A stretch of DNA of 64,000 nt from Candidatus Calescibacterium sp. (GCA_025059235.1 JANXCV010000001.1:207204-271203); one strand, 5' to 3'; counted from the stretch's first letter, positions 23,701-64,000 are shown. Program-made: numbers and translations. The notes: generated by a model not told the origin, from the letters alone.

Positions 23701-23792
23701 GGAGGAATGGTATTTGGCAGCCACCTATAAGAATTCCTCCATCCTCACCAGTAAATTACCTACTCAATTCGCTGAGAATCAATAAATGGTAG
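20736..23792 (+). CDS. Large (1018 aa) protein with a prepilin-type N-terminal motif and BNR/Asp-box repeats
   Basis: The N-terminus MKKIGITMIELLVSISIIIIFFVLL matches the G-[FI]-T-x-I-E + hydrophobic helix class III signal. Three Asp-box motifs of SxDxGxTW type are present: SVDRGYTW, SKDGKNWN, SYDKGETW. Confidence 0.7.
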   Translation: MKKIGITMIELLVSISIIIIFFVLLSTSLIYFYRFPTFDIFKDASTYRTIFFELSKTLKEADEIKNIYNTSSVSAIYVQVEDSIYAYRINRVVSNRRLEKSVDRGYTWFFVPNTSNLQDIVFKAPVPYSQAKIVFVSLKTNYPNYKISKFHQFAVKIRKEKEKRYVIAGIVNSNINPNNNRVQYTLGGAANWQNFLNISNRFSPNFLNIDTFVTSSYNSIQPIRIQTDNRYQLWYFYKQNYNSSFGYTYLDTSGDFQRGSTDTIPGADRDWLKIVNVGNYLYTAYAVIEKLYNPSTGSWEDYYSVYFAYKKLVPNYWQNNVKSSWLKKRVYSIRRVDISGGDIKFVRFSYGNAAGNKFHITFCTVISQLQLNANNYPSDFYYLGSKDGKNWNSINIDKTLVSKNIIPIDKLNPLFVVPLVDTSNKRLHFVFVNWGNFNNQDIYRVAYLYTDDLSSFSAIEYLNTGSLPGPAYRNILNQPFGCEEIRDFDAIFYNDSIYIVVSGRFRSLSIPRLWNGPRDKIAILSKNISSGTTVYNLYPNHLDPTNITFSSCSLAIERNYIHIIGNNRNTFYYLRQLILIAMTVDMISSTFGNQNALCIDSFHDGNYLHFSFYDVNSGDLDYYRIFNPLNPSLAKIGSRSIDDNLVIPSNSIDGERLLGRDIVNGEMSGITRGSDGYLHFLTYCRDSSSLGEVIYIYPTNPSNPMPNANGFDTLLVHDSSSYYRSINCDVNDNGNFVVTYTDNSGNEGLPPQANNINDLKIYIDNFHTEIDGNRRFDTENNTNISGSLSCGFHNDVKIVNNTIYVAYFVLDGDILLLKFAKSYDKGETWILEEDYLSKTFVINNLSSNDISLQVKGNIINVVYRYYDFYLGVSKKENGYWNTYFPSDVPTGAFNIRTFLDKSNNLHILSFGDNQNPTEKVYYRVFRNDTNMFELFDGIDTLNLREKYITYGIQAMGPTGDILVEDDGTVYIVISTLRSNNLYGVDLLIRRNGIWQPPIRIPPSSPVNYLLNSLRINKW

Positions 23793-29330: not shown

Positions 29331-31175
29331 TTAGTTTTTTGTATATACCATTATTTGAGGTGTTAAATCTTGGATAATTTCGTAGCAGTATTGATATCTT
29401 TTTTTTGGATCTTTTTCTATCATTTTTCTTATTATCTTCTCTATGTCTGGGGGTATATAGGATTCTGAGTGTATGTTTGTACTTATTGGGTTATTTAGCA
29501 TATGTGCTTTAAAGATTGCGTATATGTTATCTGAAGGTTCGAAGGGAAGACTACCTGTTATCATTTGATATACTATTACTCCGAGAGAGTATATATCTGA
29601 TCTGTTATCTACTTTGTTGTTTTTTATTTGTTCTGGTGACATATACCATGGAGTTCCCACGAAGTCTTGAGTGAGGTTTAGGGCTTTGTCTAGTTTTTTT
29701 GATATACCGAAGTCAGTGATTTTTGCTGTTCCATCATTTCTTATCATAATGTTTTCTGGTTTAAGGTCTCTATGAACTATTCCTTTATGGTGAGCATAAT
29801 CTAGTGCTTCTAGGAGTTGTATCCAGATTTTTAGTGCTTCGTTTAGGGATAGCTTTTTTTTCTCTTCCAGGATTTTACTTAGGTTTTTGCCTTCTACGTA
29901 TTCGAAAGCTAAGAACGGTTGGTCTCCCTCTATATCATAATCAAGCATCCTAATTATGTTTGGATGTGTAAGAATTTTATTGATTTCTATTTCGTTTAGT
30001 ATTCTTTCTTTGAACCATGTTTCTGAAAAGAGGTGCTTATGTAATAGTTTTAGTGCTACTATGGACTTATTTTTGATGTTTTGTGCTTTGTATACTACTG
30101 AGGTTGCTCCTGCTCCAAGTTTTTCCAGAAGAATGTAATTAGATACCCTTGGATTGGAAGAAGTGTCAAACGATAGCTTTTGAACTTTACCTTGATCGAT
30201 CCTTTTCAGATTTACTATCACTCTCTTATTCCTGTAACGATAGATCAAATACGATATTGCAATTAACAATAATAGTAGATATGGTAATAACTGCAAGTAT
30301 GGGTTAGGTAGTTTATTTTCTAGAATTACTATTCTTTTGTACTGTGGGAATCTATTCTTTATGATTCCTGGTGTGATTTTTAATCTTATGTTTTCATCTT
30401 TATATTCTTTATTCTTCTGAAAGCTGACACTGATTTCTGAAATCATTGTTTGTATTCTATTTATTTTGCTATCTATTTCTTCTTGTTTTAGATCACTTAT
30501 GTTATACTCTTGTTGACTGTTTAACTCTATAGGTATGATAATCGTGTTTTCATTTGTCTGAAAGTTTTTGTATTCAGTGTTGTTGAATAGAATCTTGAAG
30601 TTAAGGGATTTTATATCTTCTATTTTTTTAGATGCTGTGTTAAAAATAGGCAATACTACATCAAATTTAGAGGGAGGTATTTGAATACGCAAGTATGTGT
30701 CTTTATTTATTTGACTGGATATTCTTATTTTCTTGAGTTGAGGGTTTTCAGGATGAATATATATGTTAATACTGCCGGGTTCTATATTCTTAAATATAGC
30801 CCTTGAAGAATTCTTAACTATTTCTTTTAGACCGTTGTTTTGTATTTCTATGTATGATGGTATTTCTTGATTCTGTATATTTGTCACGTGTAATTCTAAG
30901 GTAATTTTTTTGTTTTTTAGTTTTTGTTCTTGAGGTGGGGTGTTATGCGGATAGGTTATATAATTCTCTACACGGTAGGAGCTATTTTTATTTTGTTGAT
31001 TATTATTTCGTTGATTATTATTAGCTTTTTTTTGTTTATTTTGTACGTTTACTTTATAGGTAGGTTTTGAGGATTCTATTGTCTGAGGTTCTTCTGTTTC
31101 TATAAGTAAACTTTTATTGGCGTTTACTATAGATATTAGCAGGATTAATATGGTTATAAAGAATGTTTTTTTCAT
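29331..31175 (-). CDS. Membrane Ser/Thr protein kinase with N-terminal extracytoplasmic domain and C-terminal Hanks-type kinase domain
   Basis: Signal peptide MKKTFFITILILLISIVNA. About 290 aa ectodomain. TM segment LQLLPYLLLLLIAISYLIY. Then LGAGATSVVYKA, VALKLL, HRDLKPENIM, DFGISK and GTPWYMSPE. Confidence 0.85.
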   Translation of the reverse strand: MKKTFFITILILLISIVNANKSLLIETEEPQTIESSKPTYKVNVQNKQKKANNNQRNNNQQNKNSSYRVENYITYPHNTPPQEQKLKNKKITLELHVTNIQNQEIPSYIEIQNNGLKEIVKNSSRAIFKNIEPGSINIYIHPENPQLKKIRISSQINKDTYLRIQIPPSKFDVVLPIFNTASKKIEDIKSLNFKILFNNTEYKNFQTNENTIIIPIELNSQQEYNISDLKQEEIDSKINRIQTMISEISVSFQKNKEYKDENIRLKITPGIIKNRFPQYKRIVILENKLPNPYLQLLPYLLLLLIAISYLIYRYRNKRVIVNLKRIDQGKVQKLSFDTSSNPRVSNYILLEKLGAGATSVVYKAQNIKNKSIVALKLLHKHLFSETWFKERILNEIEINKILTHPNIIRMLDYDIEGDQPFLAFEYVEGKNLSKILEEKKKLSLNEALKIWIQLLEALDYAHHKGIVHRDLKPENIMIRNDGTAKITDFGISKKLDKALNLTQDFVGTPWYMSPEQIKNNKVDNRSDIYSLGVIVYQMITGSLPFEPSDNIYAIFKAHMLNNPISTNIHSESYIPPDIEKIIRKMIEKDPKKRYQYCYEIIQDLTPQIMVYTKN

Positions 31176-50903: not shown

Positions 50904-51695
50904 ATGGAGTGCTTAGCACCTCTGGCAAGTGTAGGTATATTCCTTATCATTCTGTTTGTATCTTTTATTTTGCCGATCATAATTTCGATGATAAAGATAA
51001 TAAATCAGTATGAAAGGGGTATAAGATTAAGACTGGGGAAATACAGAGGAGTAGTTGAGGGTCCCGGTCTAGTAATCCTTATACCCTTTATAGATAAGAT
51101 GATCGTTGTCGATACCCGTGAAACCCCTATGAACCTTCCCTCCCAAGAAGTCATTACTTCCGATAATATAACCATAAAAGTAAGTGCAGTAGTTTATTTT
51201 CAGGTAATTGAGCCAGATATGGCAGTATTGAGAAATCAAGATTATATAACATCTATCTTTCAGATAGCTCAAACAACACTTAGAAACGTCGTCGGTCAGT
51301 CAGAATTGGATGAAATCTTACAACAACGAGAAAGGATAAACGAAAAAATAAGAGATATCGTAGATGAAAATACCAAACGTTGGGGTGTAAAAATAACTTT
51401 GGTAGAGATAAAAGATATTGAGTTGCCAGAGAGCTTACAAAAGGCAATGGCAAAGCAAGCTGAAGCTGAAAGAGAAAGAAGAGCAAAGATTATAAGTGCT
51501 GAAGCTGAATACCAAGCTGCTCAAAAGTTGGTCGAAGCCGCTAACCTAATAGCTTCACAACCTGTTGCACTTCAACTCAGGCTTTTCCAACTCCTAGCCG
51601 ATATAGCTTCCAAGGGGTCTAACCTGGTTATACCCTTACCAACAGAACTATTTAAGTTTTTTGGAAATTACGAAAAACCAAAGCAAGTAGATTAG
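50904..51695 (+). CDS. SPFH/Band-7 (stomatin-like) protein
   Basis: N-terminal TM, then INQYERGIRLRLGKY...ITSDNITIKVSAVVYFQV...TLRNVVGQSELDEIL...WGVKITLVEIKDIELP...AMAKQAEAERERRAKI. Confidence 0.9.
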   Translation: MECLAPLASVGIFLIILFVSFILPIIISMIKIINQYERGIRLRLGKYRGVVEGPGLVILIPFIDKMIVVDTRETPMNLPSQEVITSDNITIKVSAVVYFQVIEPDMAVLRNQDYITSIFQIAQTTLRNVVGQSELDEILQQRERINEKIRDIVDENTKRWGVKITLVEIKDIELPESLQKAMAKQAEAERERRAKIISAEAEYQAAQKLVEAANLIASQPVALQLRLFQLLADIASKGSNLVIPLPTELFKFFGNYEKPKQVD

Positions 51696-51772
51696 AATTG
51701 CCGCTTTTATCGGCAAGCGGTATAGAAATGAGCCGATACAAGCCAAAGCATGGCTTGAAATGAAAAATAACC

Positions 51773-53650
51773 GTGTACTACTACCCTTATGTGAATAGAT
51801 ACATGGAATTCTACAAGTTTAGCATAGAAAACCCCGAAAGCTTTTGGGGGTTTCAAGCAAATATAATTCCCTGGTTCAAAACTTGGGAAAAAGTATTAGA
51901 AAAAAACCATCCGTTTTATAGGTGGTTTGTCGGTGGACAATTGAACGCCTCTTATGTATGCCTGGATCAGCATGCAGAAGGCAATAAAAAAGATAAAGTA
52001 GCTTACTATTGGGAAAATGAATTGGGAGAAAAAGAAGTAGTAAGTTATTATGATCTTTACTGTAAGGTTAACTCTTTCAGTAAGTTTCTGATGGATATCG
52101 GAGTTAAAGAGGGAGATATGGTATTAATATATATGCCTATGGTAATAGATGCTATTGTAGCTATGCTTGCTACTGCAAGACTGGGAGCTACTCATAATGT
52201 TGTATTTTCAGGATTCTCAAAGAACGCGATAATTGATAGGATAGAAGATAGCAAAGCCAAATATATAATAACGGCCACCCATACCTATAGAAGGGGTAAA
52301 AGAATAGATTTACTTTCAACAATACGAGAAATAGAGAATGAAAAGATAGAAAAAGTCGTTGTATTAGACAGAGATGGTAGTTTTACAGAAGGGGGAAAAT
52401 ACATCAAGTGGCCACAGAACAAGAATTTCGAATATGTTGCACCTGTGCACGTTGAGTCAACTCACCCACTATTTGTTCTGTATACTTCTGGAACTACAGG
52501 AAAACCAAAGGGAATAGTTCATTCTACGGGAGGATATTTGGTTTATGTAGCTTGTACATTGAAATGGACTTTTAACGTAGGTGAGGATAGTACTTGGTGG
52601 TGTACTGCGGATATTGGTTGGATAACTGGGCATAGCTATGTGGTCTATGCTCCTCTTGCTTTGGGTATAACAAGCTTTATATACGAGGGAGCTCCAGACT
52701 ATCCAGATCCCTCAAAATGGTGGAGTCTAGTAGAGAAGTACAGAATAACCGAATTTTTCACTTCACCAACTGCTATCAGAATGTTCATGAAATACGATCC
52801 GGAATACATTAAGAAGCATGATCTAGGATCGCTAAGGGCTTTGGGATCAGTGGGTGAACCTATTAATCCTGAAGTATGGGAATGGTACTATAAGAACATA
52901 GGGAATAGTAGATGTCCGATTATTGATACTTGGTGGCAAACTGAAACCGGAGGCTTTATGATAGCTCCATTTATGGGTATAATTCCTCTCAGACCAGGTT
53001 TTGCTTCCTTACCTTTACCCGGAATCTTAGCAGATGTGGTTGATGAGCAAGGAAATAGTTTACCTCCTAACACAAAAGGTTATTTGGTAATAAAAGCTCC
53101 TTGGCCAGGTATGATGATGGGAATACTTAACGATGACGAGAAATATAAGCAAGTTTATTGGTCTAAATATGAAGGGATGTATTATCCTGGAGATTATGCT
53201 TTGAGGGGAGAAGAGGGATATTTTCAATTACTAGGCAGAGCGGACGAGGTAATAAAAATCGCGGGACATAGATTGGGTACCACAGAGATTGAAAGTGCTA
53301 TTCTTGAAAATGATTTTGTTGCAGAAGCTGCTGTTGTCGGAGTTCCAGATGAAGTAAGAGGAGAAACTATCGCAGCTTTTGTAACCCTTAAGCAAGGAGT
53401 TAATAAAGATGAAAGTCTAAAGCAAACTATTATTTCCAAAGTAAGAGAAATAATAGGTCCGGTTGCAGTTTTCTCATCGATATTCTTTGTAGACAAACTA
53501 CCCAAAACCAGATCTGGAAAGATAATGAGAAGGTTATTAAAAGCTATAATGCTTGGAAAAGAACTAGGAGATGTAACCACCCTGGAAGAAGAAGCCTCTG
53601 TTGAGGAAATCAAGAAAGCATACGAAGAACTAAAGCAATCTATAGGGTAA
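51773..53650 (+). CDS. acs: Acetyl-CoA synthetase (AMP-forming)
   Basis: YTSGTTGKPKGIVH, WWCTADIGWITGHSY, DTWWQTETGG, YYPGDYA, GRADEVIKIAGHRLGT, PKTRSGKIMRR. The true start may be ATG 51803 rather than GTG 51773. Confidence 0.95.
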   Translation: MYYYPYVNRYMEFYKFSIENPESFWGFQANIIPWFKTWEKVLEKNHPFYRWFVGGQLNASYVCLDQHAEGNKKDKVAYYWENELGEKEVVSYYDLYCKVNSFSKFLMDIGVKEGDMVLIYMPMVIDAIVAMLATARLGATHNVVFSGFSKNAIIDRIEDSKAKYIITATHTYRRGKRIDLLSTIREIENEKIEKVVVLDRDGSFTEGGKYIKWPQNKNFEYVAPVHVESTHPLFVLYTSGTTGKPKGIVHSTGGYLVYVACTLKWTFNVGEDSTWWCTADIGWITGHSYVVYAPLALGITSFIYEGAPDYPDPSKWWSLVEKYRITEFFTSPTAIRMFMKYDPEYIKKHDLGSLRALGSVGEPINPEVWEWYYKNIGNSRCPIIDTWWQTETGGFMIAPFMGIIPLRPGFASLPLPGILADVVDEQGNSLPPNTKGYLVIKAPWPGMMMGILNDDEKYKQVYWSKYEGMYYPGDYALRGEEGYFQLLGRADEVIKIAGHRLGTTEIESAILENDFVAEAAVVGVPDEVRGETIAAFVTLKQGVNKDESLKQTIISKVREIIGPVAVFSSIFFVDKLPKTRSGKIMRRLLKAIMLGKELGDVTTLEEEASVEEIKKAYEELKQSIG

Positions 53651-53655
53651 ACGTC

Positions 53656-54411
53656 ATGGATATAGAAAAATTAAGATTTGTAAAACCGTACGGGGATACT
53701 TTTAACGACGGGATTGTTCAATTAAGTTTTACCTTACCCGCAAAAGATAGATATACTGCTATCGAGGCTGCAAAAGTTTTGGTCTCGAAAATGGGGATAA
53801 GAGATGCCAAGGTAGCTACTGTAGAGGAGCCCTTAGAAAGATTCTTTTTCTTCGTTATCTATGGTTCTGTTGTTCACGAGATAGATATGGAGCAAATAAG
53901 ACCAATAGTACCTGAGTACGTCAAAATGTCCAAGGAGGAGGTAGAAGAATACGCAGCTAAAAACGGTATAGAAAAGATTGTTATTGTTGGAGCGACAATA
54001 GGTACCGATAGTCATACTGTGGGATTAGATAGTATACTGAATATCAAGGGATTCAAGGGGGAAAAAGGTCTGGAAGCTTATAAATGTTTTAAGGTCTATA
54101 ACTTAGGTCCCCAAGTTATGCCATCTGAATTAGTTAAGAAAGTAAAAGAATTAAAAGCACAAGCGATTCTGGTATCCCAGACTATAACTCAGAAAAATAT
54201 GCATCTTAAGAATTTAACTGAACTTGTTGATTTACTGGAAGCAGAGGAGCTAAGAGAGAGAGTGATTCTTATATGTGGTGGTAGTAGAATAGACCATAAG
54301 ATTGCCAAAGAATTGGGTTATGATGCAGGTTTTGGACCTAACACCACTCCTTCTGATGTTGCTTCCTTTATAGTACAGTTTTATGTAAAGAAGGGAGTGA
54401 GAGATAAATGA
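53656..54411 (+). CDS. kamE: D-lysine 5,6-aminomutase beta subunit-like B12-binding protein
   Basis: KPYGDTFNDGIVQLSFTLP, VGATIGTDSHTVGLDSILNIKGF (DxHxxG), LVSQTITQKNMHLKNLTELVDLLEAEELRERVILICGG, IAKELGYDAGFGP. This pattern is as I recall it for KamE/OraS-type subunits. No alpha subunit (kamD) is adjacent. Confidence 0.75.
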   Translation: MDIEKLRFVKPYGDTFNDGIVQLSFTLPAKDRYTAIEAAKVLVSKMGIRDAKVATVEEPLERFFFFVIYGSVVHEIDMEQIRPIVPEYVKMSKEEVEEYAAKNGIEKIVIVGATIGTDSHTVGLDSILNIKGFKGEKGLEAYKCFKVYNLGPQVMPSELVKKVKELKAQAILVSQTITQKNMHLKNLTELVDLLEAEELRERVILICGGSRIDHKIAKELGYDAGFGPNTTPSDVASFIVQFYVKKGVRDK

Positions 54412-55742
54412 TCATGAAGATAATCTTCTTGATATTTATAGTTATGTCTATTATTTTAACGTTTGCTAATGTAGAGAGAAAAGTGCTGTATAATCCGTCG
54501 ATAGAAGTCATAAATAATAGTTTGGACTTAGACGGACAATACCTCGTTGCTGGAAATATAAAGGGCTATACTGAGACTAGTGACGACTGGATATTCGTAA
54601 TTACCAATCCAGATCTATCTATCTCAAGGATTTCTATTCTAAGTGGGGAATTCAGTGATAGGCTTGTTAATGTTGCTCTAGTTGAAGATAGTATAGTAGG
54701 AATAGGAGATACATGGAGTTTTAGAAGAGAAAGTTTAGACGACATCCTTGTTTCTTACTTTGACAGGAAGCTAGACATGAAGGGGTATTATGTGGTTTCT
54801 GGAATAAGAGATGATAGAGCCTCTAAAATCGTTAGATGGGGAAATAAATACTATTTCTTGGGTTCTACTAGGAGTGTAGGTTTTGGAGCGAATTCCACCC
54901 TTATCTTTTCTTTTGATACCAATTTTTATCCATCTTCATTTTGGGTTATAGGTTCATCAGTCGATCAGGAAACGTTTGATTTAATTGAATTGTCTCCTAC
55001 TAAAGCCCTATTAGTTGCAGGATATCAAAAAATTCCTGGGAATAAGGATTGTTTAATAGCCATAGTCGATAACGAATTCTATATTTCTCGAGCTTTTGCC
55101 TTCGGTGGTGGTTTCGATGAAAATATCGTCGATATTATAAAAGACAAAGATAGGTTTTACTTTATATTCGAGAGTAGATCTTTTAAGCCTCATGACAAGA
55201 CAAATATTTTAATCTCAGCATATAACAGATCTAATCTTTCCCATATTCGCAGTTTTTCATTTGGTACAACTGAGGAGGATAAATACCTGTCTGCATACAA
55301 ACAAGGAGAAAATATTTTCATATTCTTTAGTACTTTGATAAACAAGAGTCCTGTACTGGCAGTGGCAGTACTAGATGAAAAAATGGGATTAAAAGGAGTA
55401 CATAATTTAAACGAATTTTTTGAAATAAACACTCAAGTTTCTGGACTAAAAAGACTAAAAAATGACTTGTGGGTGCTTAATTTATTTAACATAAACACCT
55501 TAGAGGATATATCATTTTTCAGAACAACAGATGTTTTTAACTATCTCTTAAAAGCCGGCTCTAAGGGTAAGGGAGAATCAAAACAAATGTCAGAGGATAT
55601 TAAAATACAAAAATATTATTTGAAGATTGCAAGATATCCTAATATAGAGAGCTATCCTGTCGAGATAAGAAGTCGACAAATATCCTCGGATAACTTCATA
55701 GTGACAAATGAAATAAAATTAAACTATTTTGATGTTCCATAA
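54408..55742 (+). CDS. Hypothetical secreted protein with repeated beta-strand-rich modules
   Basis: 444 aa. Signal-like MIMKIIFLIFIVMSIILTFANV. ATGA-type 4-nt overlap with the preceding gene. No recognisable motif. Confidence 0.55.
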   Translation: MIMKIIFLIFIVMSIILTFANVERKVLYNPSIEVINNSLDLDGQYLVAGNIKGYTETSDDWIFVITNPDLSISRISILSGEFSDRLVNVALVEDSIVGIGDTWSFRRESLDDILVSYFDRKLDMKGYYVVSGIRDDRASKIVRWGNKYYFLGSTRSVGFGANSTLIFSFDTNFYPSSFWVIGSSVDQETFDLIELSPTKALLVAGYQKIPGNKDCLIAIVDNEFYISRAFAFGGGFDENIVDIIKDKDRFYFIFESRSFKPHDKTNILISAYNRSNLSHIRSFSFGTTEEDKYLSAYKQGENIFIFFSTLINKSPVLAVAVLDEKMGLKGVHNLNEFFEINTQVSGLKRLKNDLWVLNLFNINTLEDISFFRTTDVFNYLLKAGSKGKGESKQMSEDIKIQKYYLKIARYPNIESYPVEIRSRQISSDNFIVTNEIKLNYFDVP

Positions 55743-55753
55743 AATTTCTGGAG

Positions 55754-56881
55754 ATGAAGAAAGCGATTAGATATGTAGATATAAAGCCAATTTCTGAAGA
55801 TCTTTTTATTGTCGATGATCCATTCGGTGTTTTCGATAGTTTTATGGTAAATAGAATAACTTTGATGATAATGTTTTTATTTGATGGTACGAGAACTGAA
55901 GAGGAAGTCAGGGTGGAATTTATTAGGAGGACCGGTATTTTTATTCCACACGATCAATTTATAGAGTTAGTTGAATTTTTTAGAGAGAATGGATTATTTC
56001 TCGATGATAGTTTTCATAAGATAAAGGAGAATAGGATAAGAGAGATAGTTAAGAGGGGGTCTTTAGAGTTTTACTTTTCTGATAAAGATTTCCCGTCAGA
56101 TCCTCAGGAACTGATAGTATTTTTGGGGATAGACAAGGTAGACGGTTTGGGTGATTATACTGCAGCCATCATGCCTCATATTGATCTAAGAGTTGCTTCT
56201 GAAACGTACTACAAGACTTATGATAGACTTAAGAAAACCGATTCGAAAAGAGTTTTTGTTTTCGGAGTATCTCATTATTTTCATAAGGGTTTATTTTCGG
56301 TATTTCCGTTGGATTGGGAAACGCCGTTTGGTCTGGTAAGTACTGATAAAGAAGCCGTCAGGAAAATTTCTTCTAAATTCAATTTTGATGTATTTGAAAA
56401 CGTTTTATCTTACAGAAAGGAACATTCAATAGCTTTCCATTTACCTTATATAAAGAGATTATTCGAAAACGTAAAAGTACTGGGAATTTTAGTTTCATAT
56501 TCCGATGATTTACGTTCTGCATGTAAAGTTTTAGATGAATTAGCTCACTTTATAGCAGAAAATTATCCCGATTCTATTTTTATTTCCAGTGTCGATTTAA
56601 GTCATGTAGGTAAAAAATTTGGTGATGATAGATGTTTTGATCCAGAGGAAGTGGATATGAAGTATCTTGAGTTTGTAAGAAACATCAGACCAGAAGAAGC
56701 ACTGGATTATTTAATCGAAATCGATAACTTTACCAGAATAGATGGAATCTTGACAAACTACTTATTCCTTAAAGTTATAAAGAATATAGGGCTAAACCAA
56801 GGAAGTATAGTTGATTATAAAAAACATATCGATAAGTATACCGACTCTATAGTTTCGTATTCTTCCATAGTTTTTAAATGA
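55754..56881 (+). CDS. Memo-family (AmmeMemoRadiSam system protein B-like) enzyme with a PqqD/RRE-like N-terminal extension
   Basis: Memo core: AAIMPHIDLRVASETY, VFGVSHYF, EHSIAFHLPYIK, SVDLSHVG. N-terminal ~100 aa: FMVNRITLMIMFLFDGTRTEEEVRVEFIRRTGIFIPHDQFIELVEFFRENGLFLDD follows the PqqD pattern (LN-x-t-x-x-i-x-x-l-x-DG-x-rT-x-x-Ei...v-x-x-Fl-x-x-L-x-x-x-gl). Confidence 0.7.
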   Translation: MKKAIRYVDIKPISEDLFIVDDPFGVFDSFMVNRITLMIMFLFDGTRTEEEVRVEFIRRTGIFIPHDQFIELVEFFRENGLFLDDSFHKIKENRIREIVKRGSLEFYFSDKDFPSDPQELIVFLGIDKVDGLGDYTAAIMPHIDLRVASETYYKTYDRLKKTDSKRVFVFGVSHYFHKGLFSVFPLDWETPFGLVSTDKEAVRKISSKFNFDVFENVLSYRKEHSIAFHLPYIKRLFENVKVLGILVSYSDDLRSACKVLDELAHFIAENYPDSIFISSVDLSHVGKKFGDDRCFDPEEVDMKYLEFVRNIRPEEALDYLIEIDNFTRIDGILTNYLFLKVIKNIGLNQGSIVDYKKHIDKYTDSIVSYSSIVFK

Positions 56882-58146
56882 GAGCGATACTAGAAATAAA
56901 GCATGATAATAGCATAGAGATAATTTACTCTAAAGGTGGAATTATAAGGAGCTCTAAATATTCCTCTTTTTTGGACTTAGATGCTTCTGAAGTAGGAAAT
57001 AAAGAGGTAATAGTTGTTATTCCTGATAGTTTTCTAATAACAAAAAATCTAGTAATTCCCTGGGATATAAAGAGTATATTGGCTTTAAAGTCATATCTGG
57101 TTAAATCGCTGCCTGTCAAACCAAATGATCTATATAATGATTATCTTATTATCGGTAATAAGGTTTATTTTGTTGGTGTAAGAAAGGAATTACTTTCAGA
57201 CTGTATGAAACTTTTGAAAAGGTTAAAAGCAAAATTAAGAGCGGTTATTCCTAAGAGTTATGTCCTTAAGATTGCATGTAATCTGAGTCATCCTAAATAT
57301 GTGGGAATCAATTTTGATGAGAGTTATACTTCTATTTTTTCGTTTGAGGGTAATGGATATTTCTTTTTTGTTGTTTTACCGTATGGGTTTGCTAGTTTTT
57401 TGGACGTCAGTGATGAAATTCAGTTAACCAAATTTATAAATGAGGTATATAGGTTGGTATCTTCTTTTCAGAATCAGACAAAGATAAGCATAGAAGAGTT
57501 TTTCTTGATCGTAAACAAGGAGTATTCTAGGTTACCTGTTTTGAGCTACTTATCGAAGACTTTTCTGGGTATGAATATTATAACGATGGATGATGGAAAG
57601 TATTGGGATGTATATTCAAAAATCTTAGAACTTAGAGGATCCTTACCCGTTAACTTATCTATCGATAAAATTTCACATAGTTCAAATAAAGAGGAGTTTT
57701 TAAGACGGTTGGAAAATTCTTTAACTTTCGTAATTATGGGACTGATGGTATTTTTAGTAATAACTTTCATTACTGGTGGAAATTCTGTAAAGAGGCAAAG
57801 AATTATCCTAGAAGCAGTTAAAAATAACTATAACTCTCAATTGAGTTTATTATCTTCCAGTTATATACAACATTCGAATGTAATAGAGAATAAGAGCTTT
57901 TATGCTTATGAAGCTCTGGAAAATCTAAATAGGATGTCTGCTATAGAAGTATATCTTGAGAACTTTTATGTAAAGGATGGGAATTTTTATCTAACGGTAG
58001 TCAGTAAACGTTATTCAGAAATCGTAGCTTTAGTAGATGGTCTTAGAAGTAGTGGGATCAATGCTTCTATAGAGGGAAACGTAAAGTTTAGCGTTTTGGA
58101 CTTGTATGAACTTAATAGAGCTCAAATAAGGATAGAACCGAAGTGA
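56878..58146 (+). CDS. PilM-PilN-like (GspL-like) fusion: cytoplasmic actin-like domain, one TM, periplasmic domain
   Basis: VVIPDSFLITKNLVIP, LKSYLVKSLPVKPNDLYNDYLIIG, VYFVGVRKELLSDCMKLLKRLKAKLRAVIPKSYVL and VGINFDESYTSIFSF follow the PilM block order. TM LTFVIMGLMVFLVITFITGG sits at ~aa 285, followed by a ~115-aa domain. By-eye call. Confidence 0.5.
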   Translation: MRAILEIKHDNSIEIIYSKGGIIRSSKYSSFLDLDASEVGNKEVIVVIPDSFLITKNLVIPWDIKSILALKSYLVKSLPVKPNDLYNDYLIIGNKVYFVGVRKELLSDCMKLLKRLKAKLRAVIPKSYVLKIACNLSHPKYVGINFDESYTSIFSFEGNGYFFFVVLPYGFASFLDVSDEIQLTKFINEVYRLVSSFQNQTKISIEEFFLIVNKEYSRLPVLSYLSKTFLGMNIITMDDGKYWDVYSKILELRGSLPVNLSIDKISHSSNKEEFLRRLENSLTFVIMGLMVFLVITFITGGNSVKRQRIILEAVKNNYNSQLSLLSSSYIQHSNVIENKSFYAYEALENLNRMSAIEVYLENFYVKDGNFYLTVVSKRYSEIVALVDGLRSSGINASIEGNVKFSVLDLYELNRAQIRIEPK

Positions 58147-58988
58147 CAACAGTAAAAATTATTCTAATTTTTATCTTGGTCATGGCTATTTTCTTGGTAA
58201 GGAAAAATTATAAAAATCAAGAAGACGCGATTGTAAAGGAAAAAGAGAAATACAACAACTACATAGTTGTTTTGAACTCTATATATTCAAAGGACAAACA
58301 ACAAAAAGTTAATCCAGAGTTATTGAAGCAAGAGTTAAACAATCTTTTGAATCATATGGAAAATAGAGGCATAGTTATAGTCGATGAGATATATGAAACT
58401 TCTAGTAGTAGAACTAGTTTAATATTTAGGATAAAGAAAGAATATTTTCTTAATTTCTTAGAATATCTGTACGATAACACTGGATCATATAATGTTGATA
58501 GTTTTTCTCTGATTTCTACTAGCAATGAGTATATAAAATTATCGATGGTGATTGATTACTTGTATTCTTTGCCTTTTAGTGAATGGAGTCAGTACTTTTT
58601 TGATTCCCGAGGTTTAAAGTATAGATTTTGGCAGGAAGAACTGAAAAATTATGAACAAAAGAGGAAGATAAGAGAACAGAGACAAAGAACAGAAAAAGAG
58701 ATGGAAAAAACTTCTCCGTATTTGGCTGGAAAAGATAAAGATGAACAGAATATTCTCGAGTCTGCAAAGATATCAGAATTTAACTTGGATATCAAGTACA
58801 AAGGATATATAATGATTTCAAGTAAAAGATTCGGAATAATTGAATACAACAATAATGAAATTTTCTGTGAAGAAGGAAAAAATTATGATATAGAGGGCTT
58901 TGCCGTAAAAATACTAGAAATCAATGAGAAGTATATTGCTATTGGAGTTGATGGCAAGGTATACTTTTATAAGGTAGAAATGTTATGA
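58143..58988 (+). CDS. Bitopic protein, PilO/GspM-like with a PilP-like C-terminal beta domain
   Basis: N-terminal TM VKIILIFILVMAIFLV, a coiled segment, then a ferredoxin-like region. The C-terminus YKGYIMISSKRFGIIEYNNNEIFCEEGKNYDIEGFAVKILEINEKYIAIGVDGKVYF resembles the PilP/GspC-HR pattern. Weak by-eye call. Confidence 0.4.
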   Translation: MTTVKIILIFILVMAIFLVRKNYKNQEDAIVKEKEKYNNYIVVLNSIYSKDKQQKVNPELLKQELNNLLNHMENRGIVIVDEIYETSSSRTSLIFRIKKEYFLNFLEYLYDNTGSYNVDSFSLISTSNEYIKLSMVIDYLYSLPFSEWSQYFFDSRGLKYRFWQEELKNYEQKRKIREQRQRTEKEMEKTSPYLAGKDKDEQNILESAKISEFNLDIKYKGYIMISSKRFGIIEYNNNEIFCEEGKNYDIEGFAVKILEINEKYIAIGVDGKVYFYKVEML

Positions 58989-61402
58989 AATATGTAATTT
59001 TTCACTTACATTTCTATCAGCCTCCGAGAATGAATCCTTTTGTGAACGAAATAGAGTTTCAAAGTAGTGCTTATCCTTATGATAATTGGAATGAAAGGAT
59101 AGCGAGGGAGTGTTATATTCCTAATGTTTATGCCAGGATTTTTGATTCCAGTGGTTACATACTAAATATTATCAACAACTTAGATTATGTCAGTTTTAAT
59201 TTCGGACCAACATTAATAAACTGGATAAAAAAATACTGTCATGATCTATACTGCAAAATAATTGAAGCCGATAGGAATAGTATAAATAGATTAGGGTGTG
59301 GTAATGCTATTGCACAAGTTTACAACCATGTGATTATGCCTCTTGTTAACAGAATAGACAAGGAGAATCAGGTCTATTGGGCTATACAAGATTTTCGTTA
59401 TCATTTTGGGAGAGATCCTATGGGTATGTGGCTTTCTGAAACTGCTGTGGATATCGAAACCCTTGAAGTACTTGCTTTACATGGAATACGTTTTACTATT
59501 CTTGCTCCACATCAGATAAAAACGTTTAGAAGAATAGGTGATTCTGAATGGATAGAAAATAATGGAAATCTTCCTAACAAACCATTTTTAATCAACCTAC
59601 CATCGGGAAGAAAAATTGTAGTATTTGTGTATAACTCGATGATTTCTCATGCTGTTTCTTTTCAGGATTTACTCAGTAGTGGTGAAAGACTATCAAAGAC
59701 AATTCTGGGTGAGTTTAAAGATGACAACGATGTTATTGTTATTGCCTCGGATGGAGAAACTTACGGACATCATAAAAAATTTGGAGAGCTGGGGTTAGCG
59801 TATTGTATATATACTTTGCTTTCAAACCCATCAACAAAAGTATGTAATTTTGAATACTATATCAAAAATGTTGATATTCTGTATGAAGCTATGATAAACG
59901 AGAATACTTCATGGAGTTGCTTTCATGGTATAGGAAGGTGGAAAGAGAACTGTGGTTGTAAGTTCGATATGAATACTTCTCAAGAATGGAGAAGAAACCT
60001 TAAGATAGCAGTTGATGGTATAAGAAATGTTTTTGAGGAAATATACGTTAACACTATTAATGAAATTGGTATTAGTGACCTAAGAAGAGAATATATCAAC
60101 TACATAATAAAAAGGGATAATCATATAGATTCTGTTGATGATTTGCAAAAGATTATTTGTGATTTTATGAATGACAATGGAATAGATGATTGTCAGAATG
60201 CGAAAAAGTTAATGAATCTACTGGAGATATATAAGAATATTTTGTTTGCTTATACTAGTTGTGGTTGGTTTTTTGATGATATATCTGGTTTGGAAGCTAC
60301 TCAAAACTTGAAATTTTTGTACTGGGCTGTAACTAAGTTGAAAGAATTTTTTGGAGTAAACCTTGAGCCTATTCTAGAAACTATACTTAAAGATGCCAAA
60401 TCTAACTACTATTATGACGGTTATGCAGTATTTAAGGATTTTGTAAAGATATCGTGTTTGGGAAAGGATAGGATTTTGGCATCCTATATTTTTAGCAAGA
60501 TGTTTTTTGAAACACCTAGCCGCTTTTTGAATTGTTTCTGGCAAATAGAAGATTTACAGAAATACTCCGATGAAAATGTTATTATTTCTACAGGAAGGGC
60601 TAAGTGTACTGATATATCTGATTTTTCTTTTTATAGTAGTAATTTTGTATTTGTATATTTGGGAGGGCTTTCGCTTTATTTTGGGATGGGTGAGTTTGAA
60701 CCTTCAGAGGTATTCGATACTGTTAAGAACTATTCTCAAAATGGTGATTACCCTGAAATTATTAATTTTATTAACAGATGCTCCTTCAAAGTTTTCTCGT
60801 TGAATGATGTTTTTGTAAATTCTCGCCGGAACATAATAAGAAAATTAATTTCTTCTAATGTTGAGCAGATTGATAAGAAAATAGATGAAATATTCTTCGA
60901 ACAAAAAAATATTATTCGTAATCTGATAGATGCTGATTTTTATCCGATTCCTCTAGAGATGAGATTGATAACCTTGTTAATATTGGATAATCAAATAGAT
61001 AGAGCTATAGAGAACTATGATTTAAGGCAAAATTATTACGAAGATATAATGTACTTTGTTACCAATAGAGACAAGCTAGATTTATCACTAGATCAAGAAA
61101 AAATAAAAAATAAATTTGAAACGAGATTAAAAGATATGCTGATAACCTTGAAAAGTTATATAGAGGAAAAGAATATAAAGGCAATCGAATGTCTGGATAA
61201 TATTCATAGTTTTATAGATTTTGGTATGAGGCTAAGGATTAGCTATAATTTGTGGGAGTCTCAAAACATTATGTTTTTGTTATATAGGTACTTTATACAT
61301 AATAAACAGGTTTTTATTGAAAAGTACGGAAAGGACTATCAAGAAATAGAGAGAAAAATTATATCCTTAGCTGATATTCTGAGGATAAGGCTGATTACGT
61401 AA
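58985..61402 (+). CDS. Glycoside hydrolase family 57 protein (long form with helical C-terminal extension)
   Basis: FHLHFYQPPR (GH57 region I), MWLSETAV (WxxExA, nucleophile Glu), IASDGETYGHH (region IV, acid/base Asp), TSCGWFFDD. 805 aa. Confidence 0.85.
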   Translation: MKYVIFHLHFYQPPRMNPFVNEIEFQSSAYPYDNWNERIARECYIPNVYARIFDSSGYILNIINNLDYVSFNFGPTLINWIKKYCHDLYCKIIEADRNSINRLGCGNAIAQVYNHVIMPLVNRIDKENQVYWAIQDFRYHFGRDPMGMWLSETAVDIETLEVLALHGIRFTILAPHQIKTFRRIGDSEWIENNGNLPNKPFLINLPSGRKIVVFVYNSMISHAVSFQDLLSSGERLSKTILGEFKDDNDVIVIASDGETYGHHKKFGELGLAYCIYTLLSNPSTKVCNFEYYIKNVDILYEAMINENTSWSCFHGIGRWKENCGCKFDMNTSQEWRRNLKIAVDGIRNVFEEIYVNTINEIGISDLRREYINYIIKRDNHIDSVDDLQKIICDFMNDNGIDDCQNAKKLMNLLEIYKNILFAYTSCGWFFDDISGLEATQNLKFLYWAVTKLKEFFGVNLEPILETILKDAKSNYYYDGYAVFKDFVKISCLGKDRILASYIFSKMFFETPSRFLNCFWQIEDLQKYSDENVIISTGRAKCTDISDFSFYSSNFVFVYLGGLSLYFGMGEFEPSEVFDTVKNYSQNGDYPEIINFINRCSFKVFSLNDVFVNSRRNIIRKLISSNVEQIDKKIDEIFFEQKNIIRNLIDADFYPIPLEMRLITLLILDNQIDRAIENYDLRQNYYEDIMYFVTNRDKLDLSLDQEKIKNKFETRLKDMLITLKSYIEEKNIKAIECLDNIHSFIDFGMRLRISYNLWESQNIMFLLYRYFIHNKQVFIEKYGKDYQEIERKIISLADILRIRLIT

Positions 61403-61418
61403 AGGAGGTAGAAGAAAG

Positions 61419-64000
61419 ATGGAATTCAATATACCTACGATAGTGATAGGTTTGGGAGGAACAGGACTAAGAACAGTAGTCAATCTCAAAAGGAGAGTGG
61501 GTAGCATAGATAAAGGCTTATTGAAGTTCTTATGTATAGATTCTGATAAGAACGAGGTATTAATTAAAGAGTTGGAGCCGGATGAGTACTTAAATGTCGG
61601 TGTGCCTGGAGTATCTGCTATCATTAGTAACTTAAAGTCTGAGGCTGCTGAGTACATAAGACCTTGGTTTCCCTCAAACCTTAGTTTCAAGGTTGTAGCC
61701 GGCGATGAAGGAGCTAAACAATTTAGACCCATGGGTAGACTCTATCTATTTAAGAATATAGACAAGGTATTTAAAGCAATTGATATGGTAACTAAACAGC
61801 TGAGAGCTAGATTTGCCGAAGTTAGCATATCTTCAAAAACTATCAATGTATACTTAATATCTTCTACTTGTGGTGGTACTGGCAGTGGAATGCTACTTGA
61901 TATGGCTTATATAGTTAGGAAAGTGATAGAGGAAGAGAATGCGGTTCCGGCTCTAATTAAAGGCATACTCTTTCTGCCTACAGCTTTTCATCCTTACCCC
62001 ATATCCGACGAGGCTGAGAAAAAACATATTTTTGCTAACGGCTATGCAACTCTCAAAGAAATAGATTACTATATGAACCCGAACAAGGATACTGAGTATT
62101 ATGTACAATTCAGTCAGACAAGAGTAATCAGGAGTAAAAAGCAACCCTTTGACGTTTGTTATATAGTTGATGATGAAAACGAGGAATTCCCAATTGGTAG
62201 TCTAGAGGATACTATAAATGCTGTAAGCGAATCTCTAGTTATACTATTAACTTCTGGTGTTGGAACAACTATAAAATCTGCGGAAGATAATTTGTTTACT
62301 GTTTTAAGTCAAACACAAAAAATGCAACCTTACTCCGGAAAAAACTATTTATATAGTTCCTTTGGAACGTCTAGTGTTGTATACCCATATGAGTCTGTAA
62401 AAAAATATGTAGCAGGAAAGCTAGTAAAATACATGCAAGATACTCTGAGTAACAAAGAGGTAAAATTAAACCATGTTTTTGATATAATGAGAACATTAAA
62501 AATAGATGAGATAAATTCAGATGATCTTATTAATACTTTCTATTCTTTTAAACCATTCTCTTCAAATGAAGTAAGTGAGAAAATTTATCAGGTAACTAAT
62601 AACAATCTAGCGGTTATTGTAAAGGAAAAGATAGTTAGTGAGCAACTCTCGACTTTACAAGCAATAAGAGAAAAGCTTGAAAAAAGTATAGATGAATTAG
62701 TGAAACAAAAATTCGAAGAATTTAAAAATTTAGTCCAGGAGTATATTTCTAATCCGTATACTGGATTCTTTTGGGTATATAAATTACTTACTGATTCCGA
62801 AAATGGATTCCCATTCTATATCGAGAAAGTGAAAGAAACTCTAAGAAAAGAAATAGAAGAGCACAGTAATCGTATTGCAAAGCTGGATAGAGATGTGAAT
62901 TTCTATTCTAATGCTCTAGTTGAAAAGTCAAATTCTTTACTTTCCAGAATATTTAACAAAAAAGATAGGAAACTTGTTGAAGGATACTCAAGGTCGATAT
63001 CCGAGCTGGGTACACATAGAGTATATCTGACTTTGAAAGAGTACGCATTGGTATTCTATAATAAATTTAGCTTGCAAGTTCAAAGATATGTAACTGATGT
63101 CTTAGAGGGAATAAACAATACTTGGAGAAGATTCTATAACGACTATATCTCAAATTATCTAAAAATAACTTTTGATTCAAAGCCAAGCAGCTGGGGAAAC
63201 AAAATAAACTTTTACGTAGCAAATAGAGACATAATCGACAAAGATATAGAGATCATAGTAGAAAATGATAAAAACAAAATAATTAGTCAGCTTTACAAGA
63301 TTTTTGATAATTTTCTAAATCTCAGATATGATAAATTTAAAAGTTATGAGGAAGCTTTACTTAACTTTATTGAGGAAAACTACAAGGATAACCTTTACAT
63401 GGATATAGAGGATCAGGTAGTAAGTATATTTGGTAGTGAAGAGGAGGTGATAAAGAAACTACTAACATCTTCCTCAGTCCTGTATAGATATAACCCTCAG
63501 GGATTTTATGATTCGTATGTCAAGTACTATAAAGTACTGGGGGTTAAAAATATAAACAATAGTAGGTTCTATAATGTCGCTAAGGTTCAAAATATTGAGG
63601 TTATAGAAAATTATAATCCTTTCAGAATATCAATGTTACAAATCAAGCATGGATTACCTTTGTATGCTTTTGTGTTGCTTGAAATCATGGAGAGTGCTTA
63701 TATGGAATTAGTAAACTCCGATCCCGGACTTCATATAGATCCATCGTATCGAGATATTGAAAACTTATCAGTTGATTATGATATTTCTGATGAAGAGATC
63801 CAAAAATATCTATATATCTACTTAGGATTAATTTTTGAGGTTATAAGAAAAGAGGGAATGAATTTTGTAGTTTACCTGGATAGTATAAAGATTGACTTGG
63901 GATCAGACAGACAAGAAGCTATTAACAATGCATTAAAGAAATTCAACGATGTTAAATTCTCCTCTAAATTTTCTGAAACTATAGAAGGTTTGATTAGATC
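61419..64000 (+). CDS. Giant tubulin/FtsZ-superfamily GTPase-like protein (partial; continues beyond the window end)
   Basis: Absent from the ORF track because no stop occurs in the window. My translation from ATG 61419 (AAAGGAGG at 61401-61408) is open through 64000 (860 codons). N-terminal TIVIGLGGTGLRTV (61449-61466 encodes GLGGTG). About 150 aa later, VYLISSTCGGTGSGMLLDMAYIV (GGTGSG at 61872-61889) matches the tubulin/FtsZ signature GGGTG[ST]G. The rest is long and helical or coiled-coil-like. Confidence 0.75.
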   Translation, partial: MEFNIPTIVIGLGGTGLRTVVNLKRRVGSIDKGLLKFLCIDSDKNEVLIKELEPDEYLNVGVPGVSAIISNLKSEAAEYIRPWFPSNLSFKVVAGDEGAKQFRPMGRLYLFKNIDKVFKAIDMVTKQLRARFAEVSISSKTINVYLISSTCGGTGSGMLLDMAYIVRKVIEEENAVPALIKGILFLPTAFHPYPISDEAEKKHIFANGYATLKEIDYYMNPNKDTEYYVQFSQTRVIRSKKQPFDVCYIVDDENEEFPIGSLEDTINAVSESLVILLTSGVGTTIKSAEDNLFTVLSQTQKMQPYSGKNYLYSSFGTSSVVYPYESVKKYVAGKLVKYMQDTLSNKEVKLNHVFDIMRTLKIDEINSDDLINTFYSFKPFSSNEVSEKIYQVTNNNLAVIVKEKIVSEQLSTLQAIREKLEKSIDELVKQKFEEFKNLVQEYISNPYTGFFWVYKLLTDSENGFPFYIEKVKETLRKEIEEHSNRIAKLDRDVNFYSNALVEKSNSLLSRIFNKKDRKLVEGYSRSISELGTHRVYLTLKEYALVFYNKFSLQVQRYVTDVLEGINNTWRRFYNDYISNYLKITFDSKPSSWGNKINFYVANRDIIDKDIEIIVENDKNKIISQLYKIFDNFLNLRYDKFKSYEEALLNFIEENYKDNLYMDIEDQVVSIFGSEEEVIKKLLTSSSVLYRYNPQGFYDSYVKYYKVLGVKNINNSRFYNVAKVQNIEVIENYNPFRISMLQIKHGLPLYAFVLLEIMESAYMELVNSDPGLHIDPSYRDIENLSVDYDISDEEIQKYLYIYLGLIFEVIRKEGMNFVVYLDSIKIDLGSDRQEAINNALKKFNDVKFSSKFSETIEGLIR

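Follow-up and report, generated by a model that had tools for sequence, protein, structure and literature searches.

Near the 3′ end of a 64,000-nt stretch of DNA from Candidatus Calescibacterium sp. (GCA_025059235.1 JANXCV010000001.1:207204-271203; the whole stretch is called the window below), an open frame starting at position 61419 encodes most of a 915-aa tubulin-like protein. Profile matches and structure prediction assign this protein to the FtsZ-like 1 (FtsZl1, Pfam Tubulin_2) branch of the tubulin/FtsZ superfamily, with a predicted tubulin/FtsZ fold over residues 8–337 that has intact T1 and T4 nucleotide loops. The gene belongs to a narrow clade, newly recognized here and seen only in Calescibacterium and related unclassified metagenome-assembled genomes (MAGs), in which it stands alone among housekeeping genes, without the usual partners of its relatives. 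With moderate confidence, we propose that the product is a GTP-dependent, self-assembling intracellular scaffold of a cytoskeleton-like kind.

The family and the gene label were already known. A preliminary description of the window, made from its sequence alone, had presented the protein as unnoticed; NCBI annotates it as tubulin-like (GenBank name ‘tubulin-like doman-containing protein’), and as a database entry the finding is ordinary. The same description had likened the protein to FtsZ-like families known from comparative genomics, a likeness that the identification as FtsZl1 bears out. That family was described by Makarova and Koonin (2010, Biol Direct 5:33, PMC2875224) as proteins of ~1000 aa reliably similar to FtsZ only up to helix H5, followed by a coiled-coil and a C-terminal domain. 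A 2023 phylogeny (PMC9871819), in which the family is the outgroup, equated the FtsZ-like sequences of Makarova and Koonin with Pfam Tubulin_2. Literature searches on FtsZl1, PF13809 and Tubulin_2 returned the 2010 description, the 2023 phylogeny and incidental mentions, and no experimental study, in line with the earlier statement that the group has no experimentally defined function.

Three sets of comparisons carry the assignment. First, a Pfam scan of the full-length protein gave a match to Tubulin_2 (PF13809) over residues 8–337 and profile positions 1–352 of 356 (215.5 bits, cut-off 27; E 1.7e-63), with no other significant domain. Neither PF00091 nor FtsZ_C (PF12327) matched the 915-aa protein at E up to 0.01, NCBIfam had no model for it, and phmmer with the full protein against PDB sequences gave nothing but ATP synthase b-subunit coiled-coil noise (E 0.37–0.63). 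Every defining FtsZl1 feature that could be tested was found; the vWA/kinase operon context, which is typical and not strictly defining, was not.

Second, an AlphaFold2 (AF2) model of the full-length protein, built on 105 family sequences, reached a predicted local distance difference test score (pLDDT) of 89.8 and a predicted template modelling score of 0.74. Foldseek against the PDB returned 111 chains at E ≤ 1e-3, topped by CetZ2 (4b45, E 9e-6). The 50 chains listed were all FtsZ, CetZ or tubulin at probability 1.00, and the matches, which include CetZ1 (4b46), S. aureus FtsZ, M. jannaschii FtsZ (1w5a) and β-tubulin, have identities of 11–16% and target-normalised template modelling (TM) scores of 0.32–0.51. 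Phage FtsZ and tubulin models were also among the matches in BFVD. The tubulin/FtsZ superfamily membership proposed in the preliminary description is thus upheld by profile and model together.

Third, hhalign set a profile of the family N-terminal domain onto residues 15–165 of E. coli and B. subtilis FtsZ with a probability of 94% and E 1e-7, and no further. By sequence, the protein is not a canonical FtsZ, CetZ, TubZ, PhuZ or tubulin, because it has no PF00091 or FtsZ_C match, a different T7 motif, no canonical C-terminal domain and a length of 915 aa; the earlier judgement that it is not a normal FtsZ stands.

Sequence comparison shows the gene itself to be genuine and under purifying selection over its whole length. 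Translated from ATG 61419, the frame has 860 sense codons and zero stops up to position 64000, as first reported, and it is absent from the ORF (open reading frame) listing because it runs off the window end. A near-identical public contig supplies the downstream sequence and ends the gene at 915 codons, 55 residues past the window, which places the end of the coding sequence at ~64166 in window coordinates, ~166 nt beyond the last base. The full-length GenBank protein (P0001; contig JAOAFR010000008.1 of GCA_026416135.1, locus L001 10001–12748) differs from the window translation at a single residue (A487 in the window, G487 in GenBank), and window 51419–64000 has 12 single-base differences from L001 1–12582 in 12,582 positions (~99.9% identical). 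The window is therefore either a near-identical strain or an edited copy, and not that GenBank deposit itself. Ratios of non-synonymous to synonymous substitution (dN/dS) against orthologues are 0.02–0.11, rough values with dS saturated. The G+C (GC) content of the gene is ~31%, equal to that of flanking genes, and the gene is native in composition; a horizontally acquired island was considered and set aside on a GC content of 30–34% throughout.

Upstream, the Shine–Dalgarno-like sequence noted in the preliminary description is present: AAAGGAGG, 10 nt 5′ of the start codon, overlaps the TAA (61400–61402) that ends the GH57/DUF3536 gene before it. Because the gap to that stop is 16 nt, co-transcription with the upstream co-directional genes is suggested by the sequence. 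A promoter and terminator scan around the gene found 35 promoter-like sites against 33.7 expected by chance and 0 terminators. A 121-aa antisense ORF (61367–61732, − strand) overlaps the 5′ end of the tubulin-like gene and is most likely spurious, because it lies inside a conserved coding region.

The features of the gene and its product, in window coordinates, are as follows.

61401–61408, + strand: Shine–Dalgarno-like sequence, read directly
61419–64000, + strand: coding sequence of the tubulin-like (FtsZl1/Tubulin_2) protein, residues 1–860 of 915 (open frame, near-identical full-length P0001, dN/dS)
61440–62429, + strand: predicted N-terminal tubulin/FtsZ-fold domain, residues 8–337 (PF13809, AF2, Foldseek, hhalign)
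61449–61466, + strand: T1 loop, G11-L-G-G-T-G16 (conservation)
61869–61889, + strand: T4 signature, C151-G-G-T-G-S-G157 (conservation, hhalign)
62274–62291, + strand: candidate T7/H8-like motif, K286-S-A-E-D-N291 (position directly after the H7-like helix)
62466–63488, + strand: predicted helical stalk and bundle, residues ~350–690 (AF2 models)
63516–63908, + strand: predicted C-terminal α/β domain, residues ~700–830 (AF2 strands, conserved motifs)
63951–64000, + strand: start of the predicted basic C-terminal helical tail, residues 845–915, cut by the window end (AF2)

Predicted architecture and a possible mechanism

In the AF2 model, the secondary-structure elements of the N-terminal domain follow the FtsZ/tubulin order, running through S1 (residues 7–12), H1 (13–27), S2 (35–41), S3 (57–59), H3 (103–134), S4 (142–149), H4 (154–173), S5 (178–185), H5 (198–219), an inserted hairpin (227–239), S6 (246–250), an H7-like helix (262–279), a short helical segment at the T7/H8-like position (284–300), S7 (312–321) and H9 (324–344). 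Conservation was counted over the 105 family sequences, at ~20% identity to the tubulin-like protein. In T1, which lies in IVIGLGGTGLRTV (residues 8–20 of the window frame), G11, G13, G14 and G16 are present in 105/105 and T15 in 102/105. T4, the family form of GGGTG[ST]G, lies in SSTCGGTGSGMLLD (residues 148–161), with G152, T154 and G155 in all 105 sequences, G153 in 104 and G157 in 102; hhalign sets CGGTGSG (151–157) onto GGGTGTG of FtsZ. Both loops stand where the preliminary description had put them, separated by ~140 residues rather than the ~150 given there. D41, in a T2-like DSD/DTD motif, is found in 105/105, and R103, R107, N207 and E214 each in at least 97/105. From sequence and model, we infer that the protein binds GTP through T1–T4.

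The element that would act on a neighbouring subunit is less clear-cut. Directly after the H7-like helix, KSAEDN is a candidate counterpart, by its position, of the FtsZ T7 loop and the start of H8. KSAEDNL is invariant in 13 aligned orthologues of the clade; family-wide, N291 is kept in 94/105, S287 in 58/105 and D290 in 55/105. The region is left unaligned by hhalign to FtsZ, and the pLDDT of the model dips to 67 at residues 281–290. This block and residues 91–100 and 191–200 are the lowest-confidence parts of the domain and contain the T7-like, T3 and T5 loops. In FtsZ and tubulin, it is the nucleotide or the adjacent subunit that orders the T3, T5 and T7 loops.

Past the Tubulin_2 domain, ~575 aa are predicted to form a three-helix stalk, a helical bundle, an α/β domain and a basic helical tail. 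The preliminary description had given more than 650 aa of helical extension; the extension is shorter than that, and residues 700–830 are modelled as α/β. The stalk has helices at 394–444, 464–504 and 517–581 (51, 41 and 65 residues), followed by a smaller bundle at 603–684. Strands of the α/β domain lie at 702–709, 727–730, 736–746 and 809–828, and its family-wide motifs are R-I-S-x-L-x-x-x-H-G-L-P-L-Y (736–749), Y761 and L-H-I-D (771–774), with Y761 in 100/105, H772 in 92/105, P747 in 85/105 and G745 in 79/105. Tail helices span 845–862, 864–886 and 893–914; residues 836–915 have an isoelectric point (pI) of 9.55, against 4.7–6.8 for the other segments. A single-sequence search with the C-terminal 520 residues found only the protein’s own clade among 1.84 billion representative proteins; the motifs of this part are nevertheless common family-wide in full-length alignments.

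A nucleotide-binding head, a stalk of long helices and a basic tail invite comparison with dynamin-like large GTPases, and the protein might be a functional analogue of these that assembles on the cytoplasmic membrane and remodels it. Membrane remodelling and vesicle biogenesis are the idea of Makarova and Koonin for FtsZl1 (PMC2875224), and the preliminary description was right that such a proposal exists. The structural likeness is weak: Foldseek of the C-terminal part alone against the PDB found nothing at E ≤ 1e-3, and its best matches were long-helix proteins, namely the SmhB/NheA pore-forming toxins (E 0.08–0.14) and the stalk of MxA (E 0.78), with MxA stalk and Drp1 together at E 0.78–1.4. 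Against a viral library, the whole chain matched a dynamin-1-like model over 586 columns (E 8.3e-4, probability 0.85, TM 0.12–0.14). Across the MxA stalk, Drp1 and viral matches, TM-scores are 0.09–0.18 and root-mean-square deviations 17–25 Å, a generic long-helix likeness, and the models indicate a resemblance of overall architecture only. The 915-aa protein, read as cytoplasmic, has no transmembrane-like or strongly hydrophobic segment. The published proposal was built on operon partners of FtsZl1 genes (vWA, OmpA, GTPase and kinase). Those that tie it to membranes, namely OmpA-family proteins, vWA proteins with signal peptides and membrane proteins, are absent from the loci examined, both in ~74 kb around the gene and at its orthologues. 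A membrane role is also compatible with a scaffold, as a filament can act on membranes too, and we consider the dynamin-like reading unlikely.

A second AF2 model, of residues 341–860 alone, bears on how the α/β domain relates to the head. Secondary-structure elements were unchanged, and the pLDDT of residues 741–790 fell from 77–95 in the full-length model to 52–68, a hint that the α/β domain may pack on the GTPase domain. An hhalign comparison of residues 685–835 with FtsZ gave a probability of 0.1%, and no sequence sign of a displaced FtsZ C-terminal domain.

For the self-assembling scaffold that we favour, these features suggest the following scheme. GTP would be bound through the T1–T4 loops, and the protein would associate with itself in a nucleotide-dependent manner, as other tubulin-superfamily proteins do, with KSAEDN after H7 acting as a T7-like element that completes the GTPase site of the neighbouring subunit. 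Self-assembly is suggested because the motif at the T7 position is conserved, because the superfamily behaves in this way and because conserved C-terminal residues suggest a preserved interface. More tentatively, the canonical activation domain (S8–S10) might be replaced by the stalk and an α/β domain folding back on the GTPase domain. It is also a weaker, speculative idea that stalk and basic tail could provide lateral or dimer contacts, or attachment to a membrane or another polyanion. In the clade, such a scaffold would do without the partners that its relatives have (vWA, kinase, PP2C and FHA).

Several observations weigh against this scheme. The literature yields no biochemical datum for any family member, and sequence similarity to FtsZ stops at H5/S6, as in the analysis of Makarova and Koonin. 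The T7 assignment is positional only, and the acidic D290 is found in about half of the family. Of the canonical four-stranded C-terminal domain, S7 alone is recognisable in the AF2 model, so the usual longitudinal interface may not exist. Docking of the α/β domain is suggested by the pLDDT drop alone, which the shallower alignment used in the C-only run could explain. Finally, the Foldseek TM-scores are modest.

Some of the same observations would fit a protein that binds nucleotide and has a structural role without polymerising, possibly without hydrolysis: similarity to FtsZ goes no further than H5/S6, S7–H9 is all that is left of the canonical C-terminal domain and D290 is not universal. 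A lack of filaments was the ‘less likely’ option of Makarova and Koonin for FtsZl1 (PMC2875224). The near-invariant T1–T4 loops and R103, R107 and N207 argue for a working nucleotide site, and conservation of N291, Y761 and H772 at ~20% family identity points to a conserved interface or active-site role. We regard a non-polymerising protein as quite improbable.

The clade and its genomic context

A homology search returned 258 matches; 20 clusters (at 90% identity) score 824–1886 bits, and the score then drops to 154 bits at ~24% identity. The 20 clusters define the clade, whose full-length members have 915–923 aa and are 43–100% identical to the window protein; in the 19 clusters besides the protein’s own, full-length members lie at 43–78%. 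Most of the listed homologues are ~700–1250 aa long. The preliminary description had called the protein giant: the size above 860 aa is borne out at 915 aa, and this is not unusually large but ordinary for FtsZl1. In a scan of one genome per GTDB species, eight loci carry the clade gene; one is labelled Candidatus Calescibacterium sp., another Deltaproteobacteria, a third is from an isolate named for Tibet and the remainder are from unclassified MAGs. Calescibacterium is a member of the candidate phylum Calescibacteriota, a lineage described in the literature from hot springs (PMC4791363).

Three independent neighbourhoods were found (GH57/YjbQ, aminotransferase/YceD and FBA/HEAT), with no neighbour common to the whole clade. 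At orthologue loci of at least 62% identity, the tubulin-like gene sits in one co-directional housekeeping array, with acetyl-CoA synthetase, a B12-binding protein, Memo, unknowns and GH57/DUF3536 upstream and YjbQ, a thiolase, a MoxR-type AAA, a PilT-like ATPase and a metallophosphatase downstream. At the 52%-identity locus (L004), the gene has an aminotransferase and YceD as its neighbours, and FtsX and an M23 peptidase lie 2.4–4.4 kb upstream (L004 5555–7633). Its neighbours at the 43%-identity locus (L006) are fructose-bisphosphate aldolase and HEAT-repeat proteins, with the S10 ribosomal operon downstream and MinC–MinD–MinE directly upstream of the aldolase (L006 6440–8438), one gene from the tubulin-like gene. 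We considered whether the gene forms a functional operon with GH57/DUF3536, Memo and the B12-binding gene upstream of it, and rejected this: orthologues at 52% and 43% identity no longer share the synteny, which is confined to those of at least 62%.

The usual FtsZl1 partners were sought in several ways. No vWA, OmpA, GTPase or kinase partner lies beside the gene in the window, in L001 or at the orthologue loci L002–L008, and no vWA, FHA, PP2C or second Tubulin_2 paralogue occurs in ~74 kb around the gene. Using partner proteins of three distant relatives (at L017, L019 and L020) as queries, tblastn against the window, L001, L004 and L006 found only a generic kinase domain 30 kb away. PADLOC-DB 2.0 gave no defence family at E up to 0.01 for the tubulin-like protein and its seven upstream neighbours.

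These three distant full-length relatives are all in multi-gene systems with Tubulin_2 paralogues. L017 (1–14476) holds PP2C, FHA, FHA-kinase, vWA and two Tubulin_2 genes. L020 (473–16545) holds FHA, FHA-kinase, an 838-aa unknown, two Tubulin_2 genes and PP2C, with nSTAND-like AAA and PhdYeFM antitoxin genes nearby. At L019 (1–17758; ENA ERZ28614304 scaffold_38), five Tubulin_2 paralogues of 1012–1188 aa stand in a row on one strand after a vWA gene, a striking tandem expansion. The list of homologues also contains TIR–Tubulin_2 (P0051) and PP2C–Tubulin_2 (P0037, P0075) fusions. The operons and fusions suggest that much of the family acts in signalling or conflict and not, as published, in membrane remodelling.

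The protein of the clade could then be a nucleotide-dependent signalling or sensor switch derived from a conflict or regulatory system whose partners were lost, a trigger-driven oligomer and not a cytoskeleton. The L017 and L020 operons, which hold the nearest non-orthologous full-length relatives, speak for this, as do the L019 system and the fusions. In the clade, by contrast, no such partner adjoins the gene or occurs within ~74 kb, and housekeeping neighbours vary by lineage while the protein stays at 915–923 aa. PADLOC gave zero matches, the composition is native, and a gene conserved vertically within a single phylum-level lineage, at low dN/dS, does not resemble a mobile defence gene. 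For the clade, we find a signalling switch improbable.

The self-assembling scaffold is also to be set against a more specific possibility, that cell division in Calescibacteriota depends on the protein, either as the main division protein in place of canonical FtsZ or as a partner that FtsZ requires. Its housekeeping setting, its clade-wide conservation and the lack of a second copy in the regions examined would suit such a role. Two of the three independent neighbourhoods have same-strand division genes no more than 4 kb upstream (MinC–MinD–MinE at L006, FtsX with the M23 peptidase at L004). A tblastn search with E. coli FtsZ over the window and all fetched loci, only ~74 kb of this genome and a small part of each of the others, found no canonical ftsZ, only matches at E ≥ 1.1 around T4. 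The proximity of MinCDE and FtsX is a weak link to cell division and possibly chance: a rough estimate puts the probability of such proximity by chance at ~4%, and it is absent in the window’s own lineage. MinC normally acts on canonical FtsZ. Its presence beside the 43%-identity orthologue thus weakens the division-protein reading, since MinC normally implies a canonical FtsZ. In addition, FtsZl1 genes typically co-occur with a normal ftsZ (PMC2875224). Our literature search found no paper linking Calescamantes or Calescibacterium with FtsZ, and the Calescamantes paper (PMC4791363) has no mention of cell division. We hold a main or obligatory division protein to be very unlikely. A broader version is a long shot: the Calescibacteriota FtsZl1 would be a core cytoskeletal element of division or shape, acting with MinCDE or FtsEX or replacing FtsZ, and would form a new type of polymer in which the canonical activation domain gives way to the helical stalk and to a novel α/β domain that lends the conserved Y761 and H772 to the assembly or the active site.

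Other genes of the region were recorded as well. In window 51773–61402 (+ strand), co-directional genes follow one another closely, stops overlapping starts, in an array kept in the orthologue loci of at least 62% identity. It encodes acetyl-CoA synthetase, a 251-aa OAM_dimer/B12-binding protein, a 444-aa protein without a Pfam match, Memo/AmmeMemoRadiSam-B, proteins of 422 aa and 281 aa without a Pfam match, and an 805-aa GH57+DUF3536 protein. Further upstream, two large ORFs, at 20736–23792 (+, 1018 aa) and 26105–28627 (+, 840 aa), match no Pfam family at E ≤ 1e-3. A 614-aa Ser/Thr kinase is encoded nearby at 29331–31175 (−); its N-terminal ~340 residues have no family assignment, and its kinase domain shares ~29% identity with the FHA-kinases encoded in the distant Tubulin_2 operons, a generic kinase similarity only.

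Downstream, L001 14435–17618 holds a MoxR-type AAA_3 ATPase without an adjoining vWA/DUF58 gene, and after it a PilT-like T2SSE ATPase and a metallophosphatase. Since vWA proteins are the usual partners both of MoxR ATPases and of FtsZl1, a vWA-like gene may be missing or unrecognised.

A test case and its relation to known systems

No branch of the tubulin/FtsZ superfamily is more divergent than FtsZl1/Tubulin_2; it occurs widely in bacteria and archaea, and sixteen years after its description we found no experimental work on it. The clade offers a simple test case, a single gene without obligatory-looking partners, with a confident structure prediction and from a thermophile, so that the protein is likely to be stable. 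It makes testable in vitro the question of whether a tubulin-fold GTPase polymerises without the canonical C-terminal domain. If a role in division or shape were true, this protein, from a thermophile and with no partner genes nearby, would give the easiest way into a family that counts several hundred detectable relatives (258 matches here).

Among known systems, the dynamin superfamily (dynamin, MxA and bacterial dynamin-like proteins) shares the arrangement of a nucleotide-binding head and a long helical stalk. The head of the tubulin-like protein is predicted to have a tubulin/FtsZ fold, however, and not that of a P-loop (TRAFAC) GTPase with G1–G4 motifs, and the stalk scores are not significant (E ≥ 0.08; TM < 0.2 for the long-helix matches), so that the relation is an analogy at most.

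FtsZ and CetZ resemble the protein in the predicted fold of its first 340 residues, the glycine-rich T1 and T4, the DxD T2-like motif and the long H7-like helix. Identity to them is 11–16%, with TM-scores of 0.35–0.51, and they differ in matching PF00091 and FtsZ_C and in having the T7 motif NxDxxD where KSAEDN stands here. In the tubulin-like protein, no S8–S10 sheet can be recognised and the C-terminal conserved peptide is lacking; its gene lies outside any dcw cluster, and the product is 915 aa long, compared with ~350–450 aa for canonical FtsZ. TubZ and PhuZ likewise belong to the divergent GTPases of the tubulin superfamily, and they assemble with the help of non-canonical C-terminal extensions. 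The tubulin-like protein is two to three times longer than these, and its gene has housekeeping neighbours and flank-like composition in place of a mobile-element context, with no tubR/tubC-like partners.

The closest comparison is with the FtsZl1 family, a separate branch in the tree of Makarova and Koonin (PMC2875224). The clade gene lacks both the tandem paralogues of the distant relatives examined and the operon partners usual in the majority of the family (vWA, often with a Ser/Thr kinase, a divergent P-loop GTPase or an OmpA-family protein). The clade comes from a lineage known from hot springs, whereas the 2010 survey (PMC2875224) found FtsZl1 absent from the hyperthermophilic Thermotogales and Aquificales, and the C-terminal domain predicted then was purely helical, whereas the AF2 model here is α/β. 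Shared with the family are the lack of an FtsZ_C or Tubulin_C domain and of an experimental function in the literature, the strong profile match, the T1 and T4 loops, FtsZ similarity that is reliable only to H5 and a length in the range of ~900–1100 aa.

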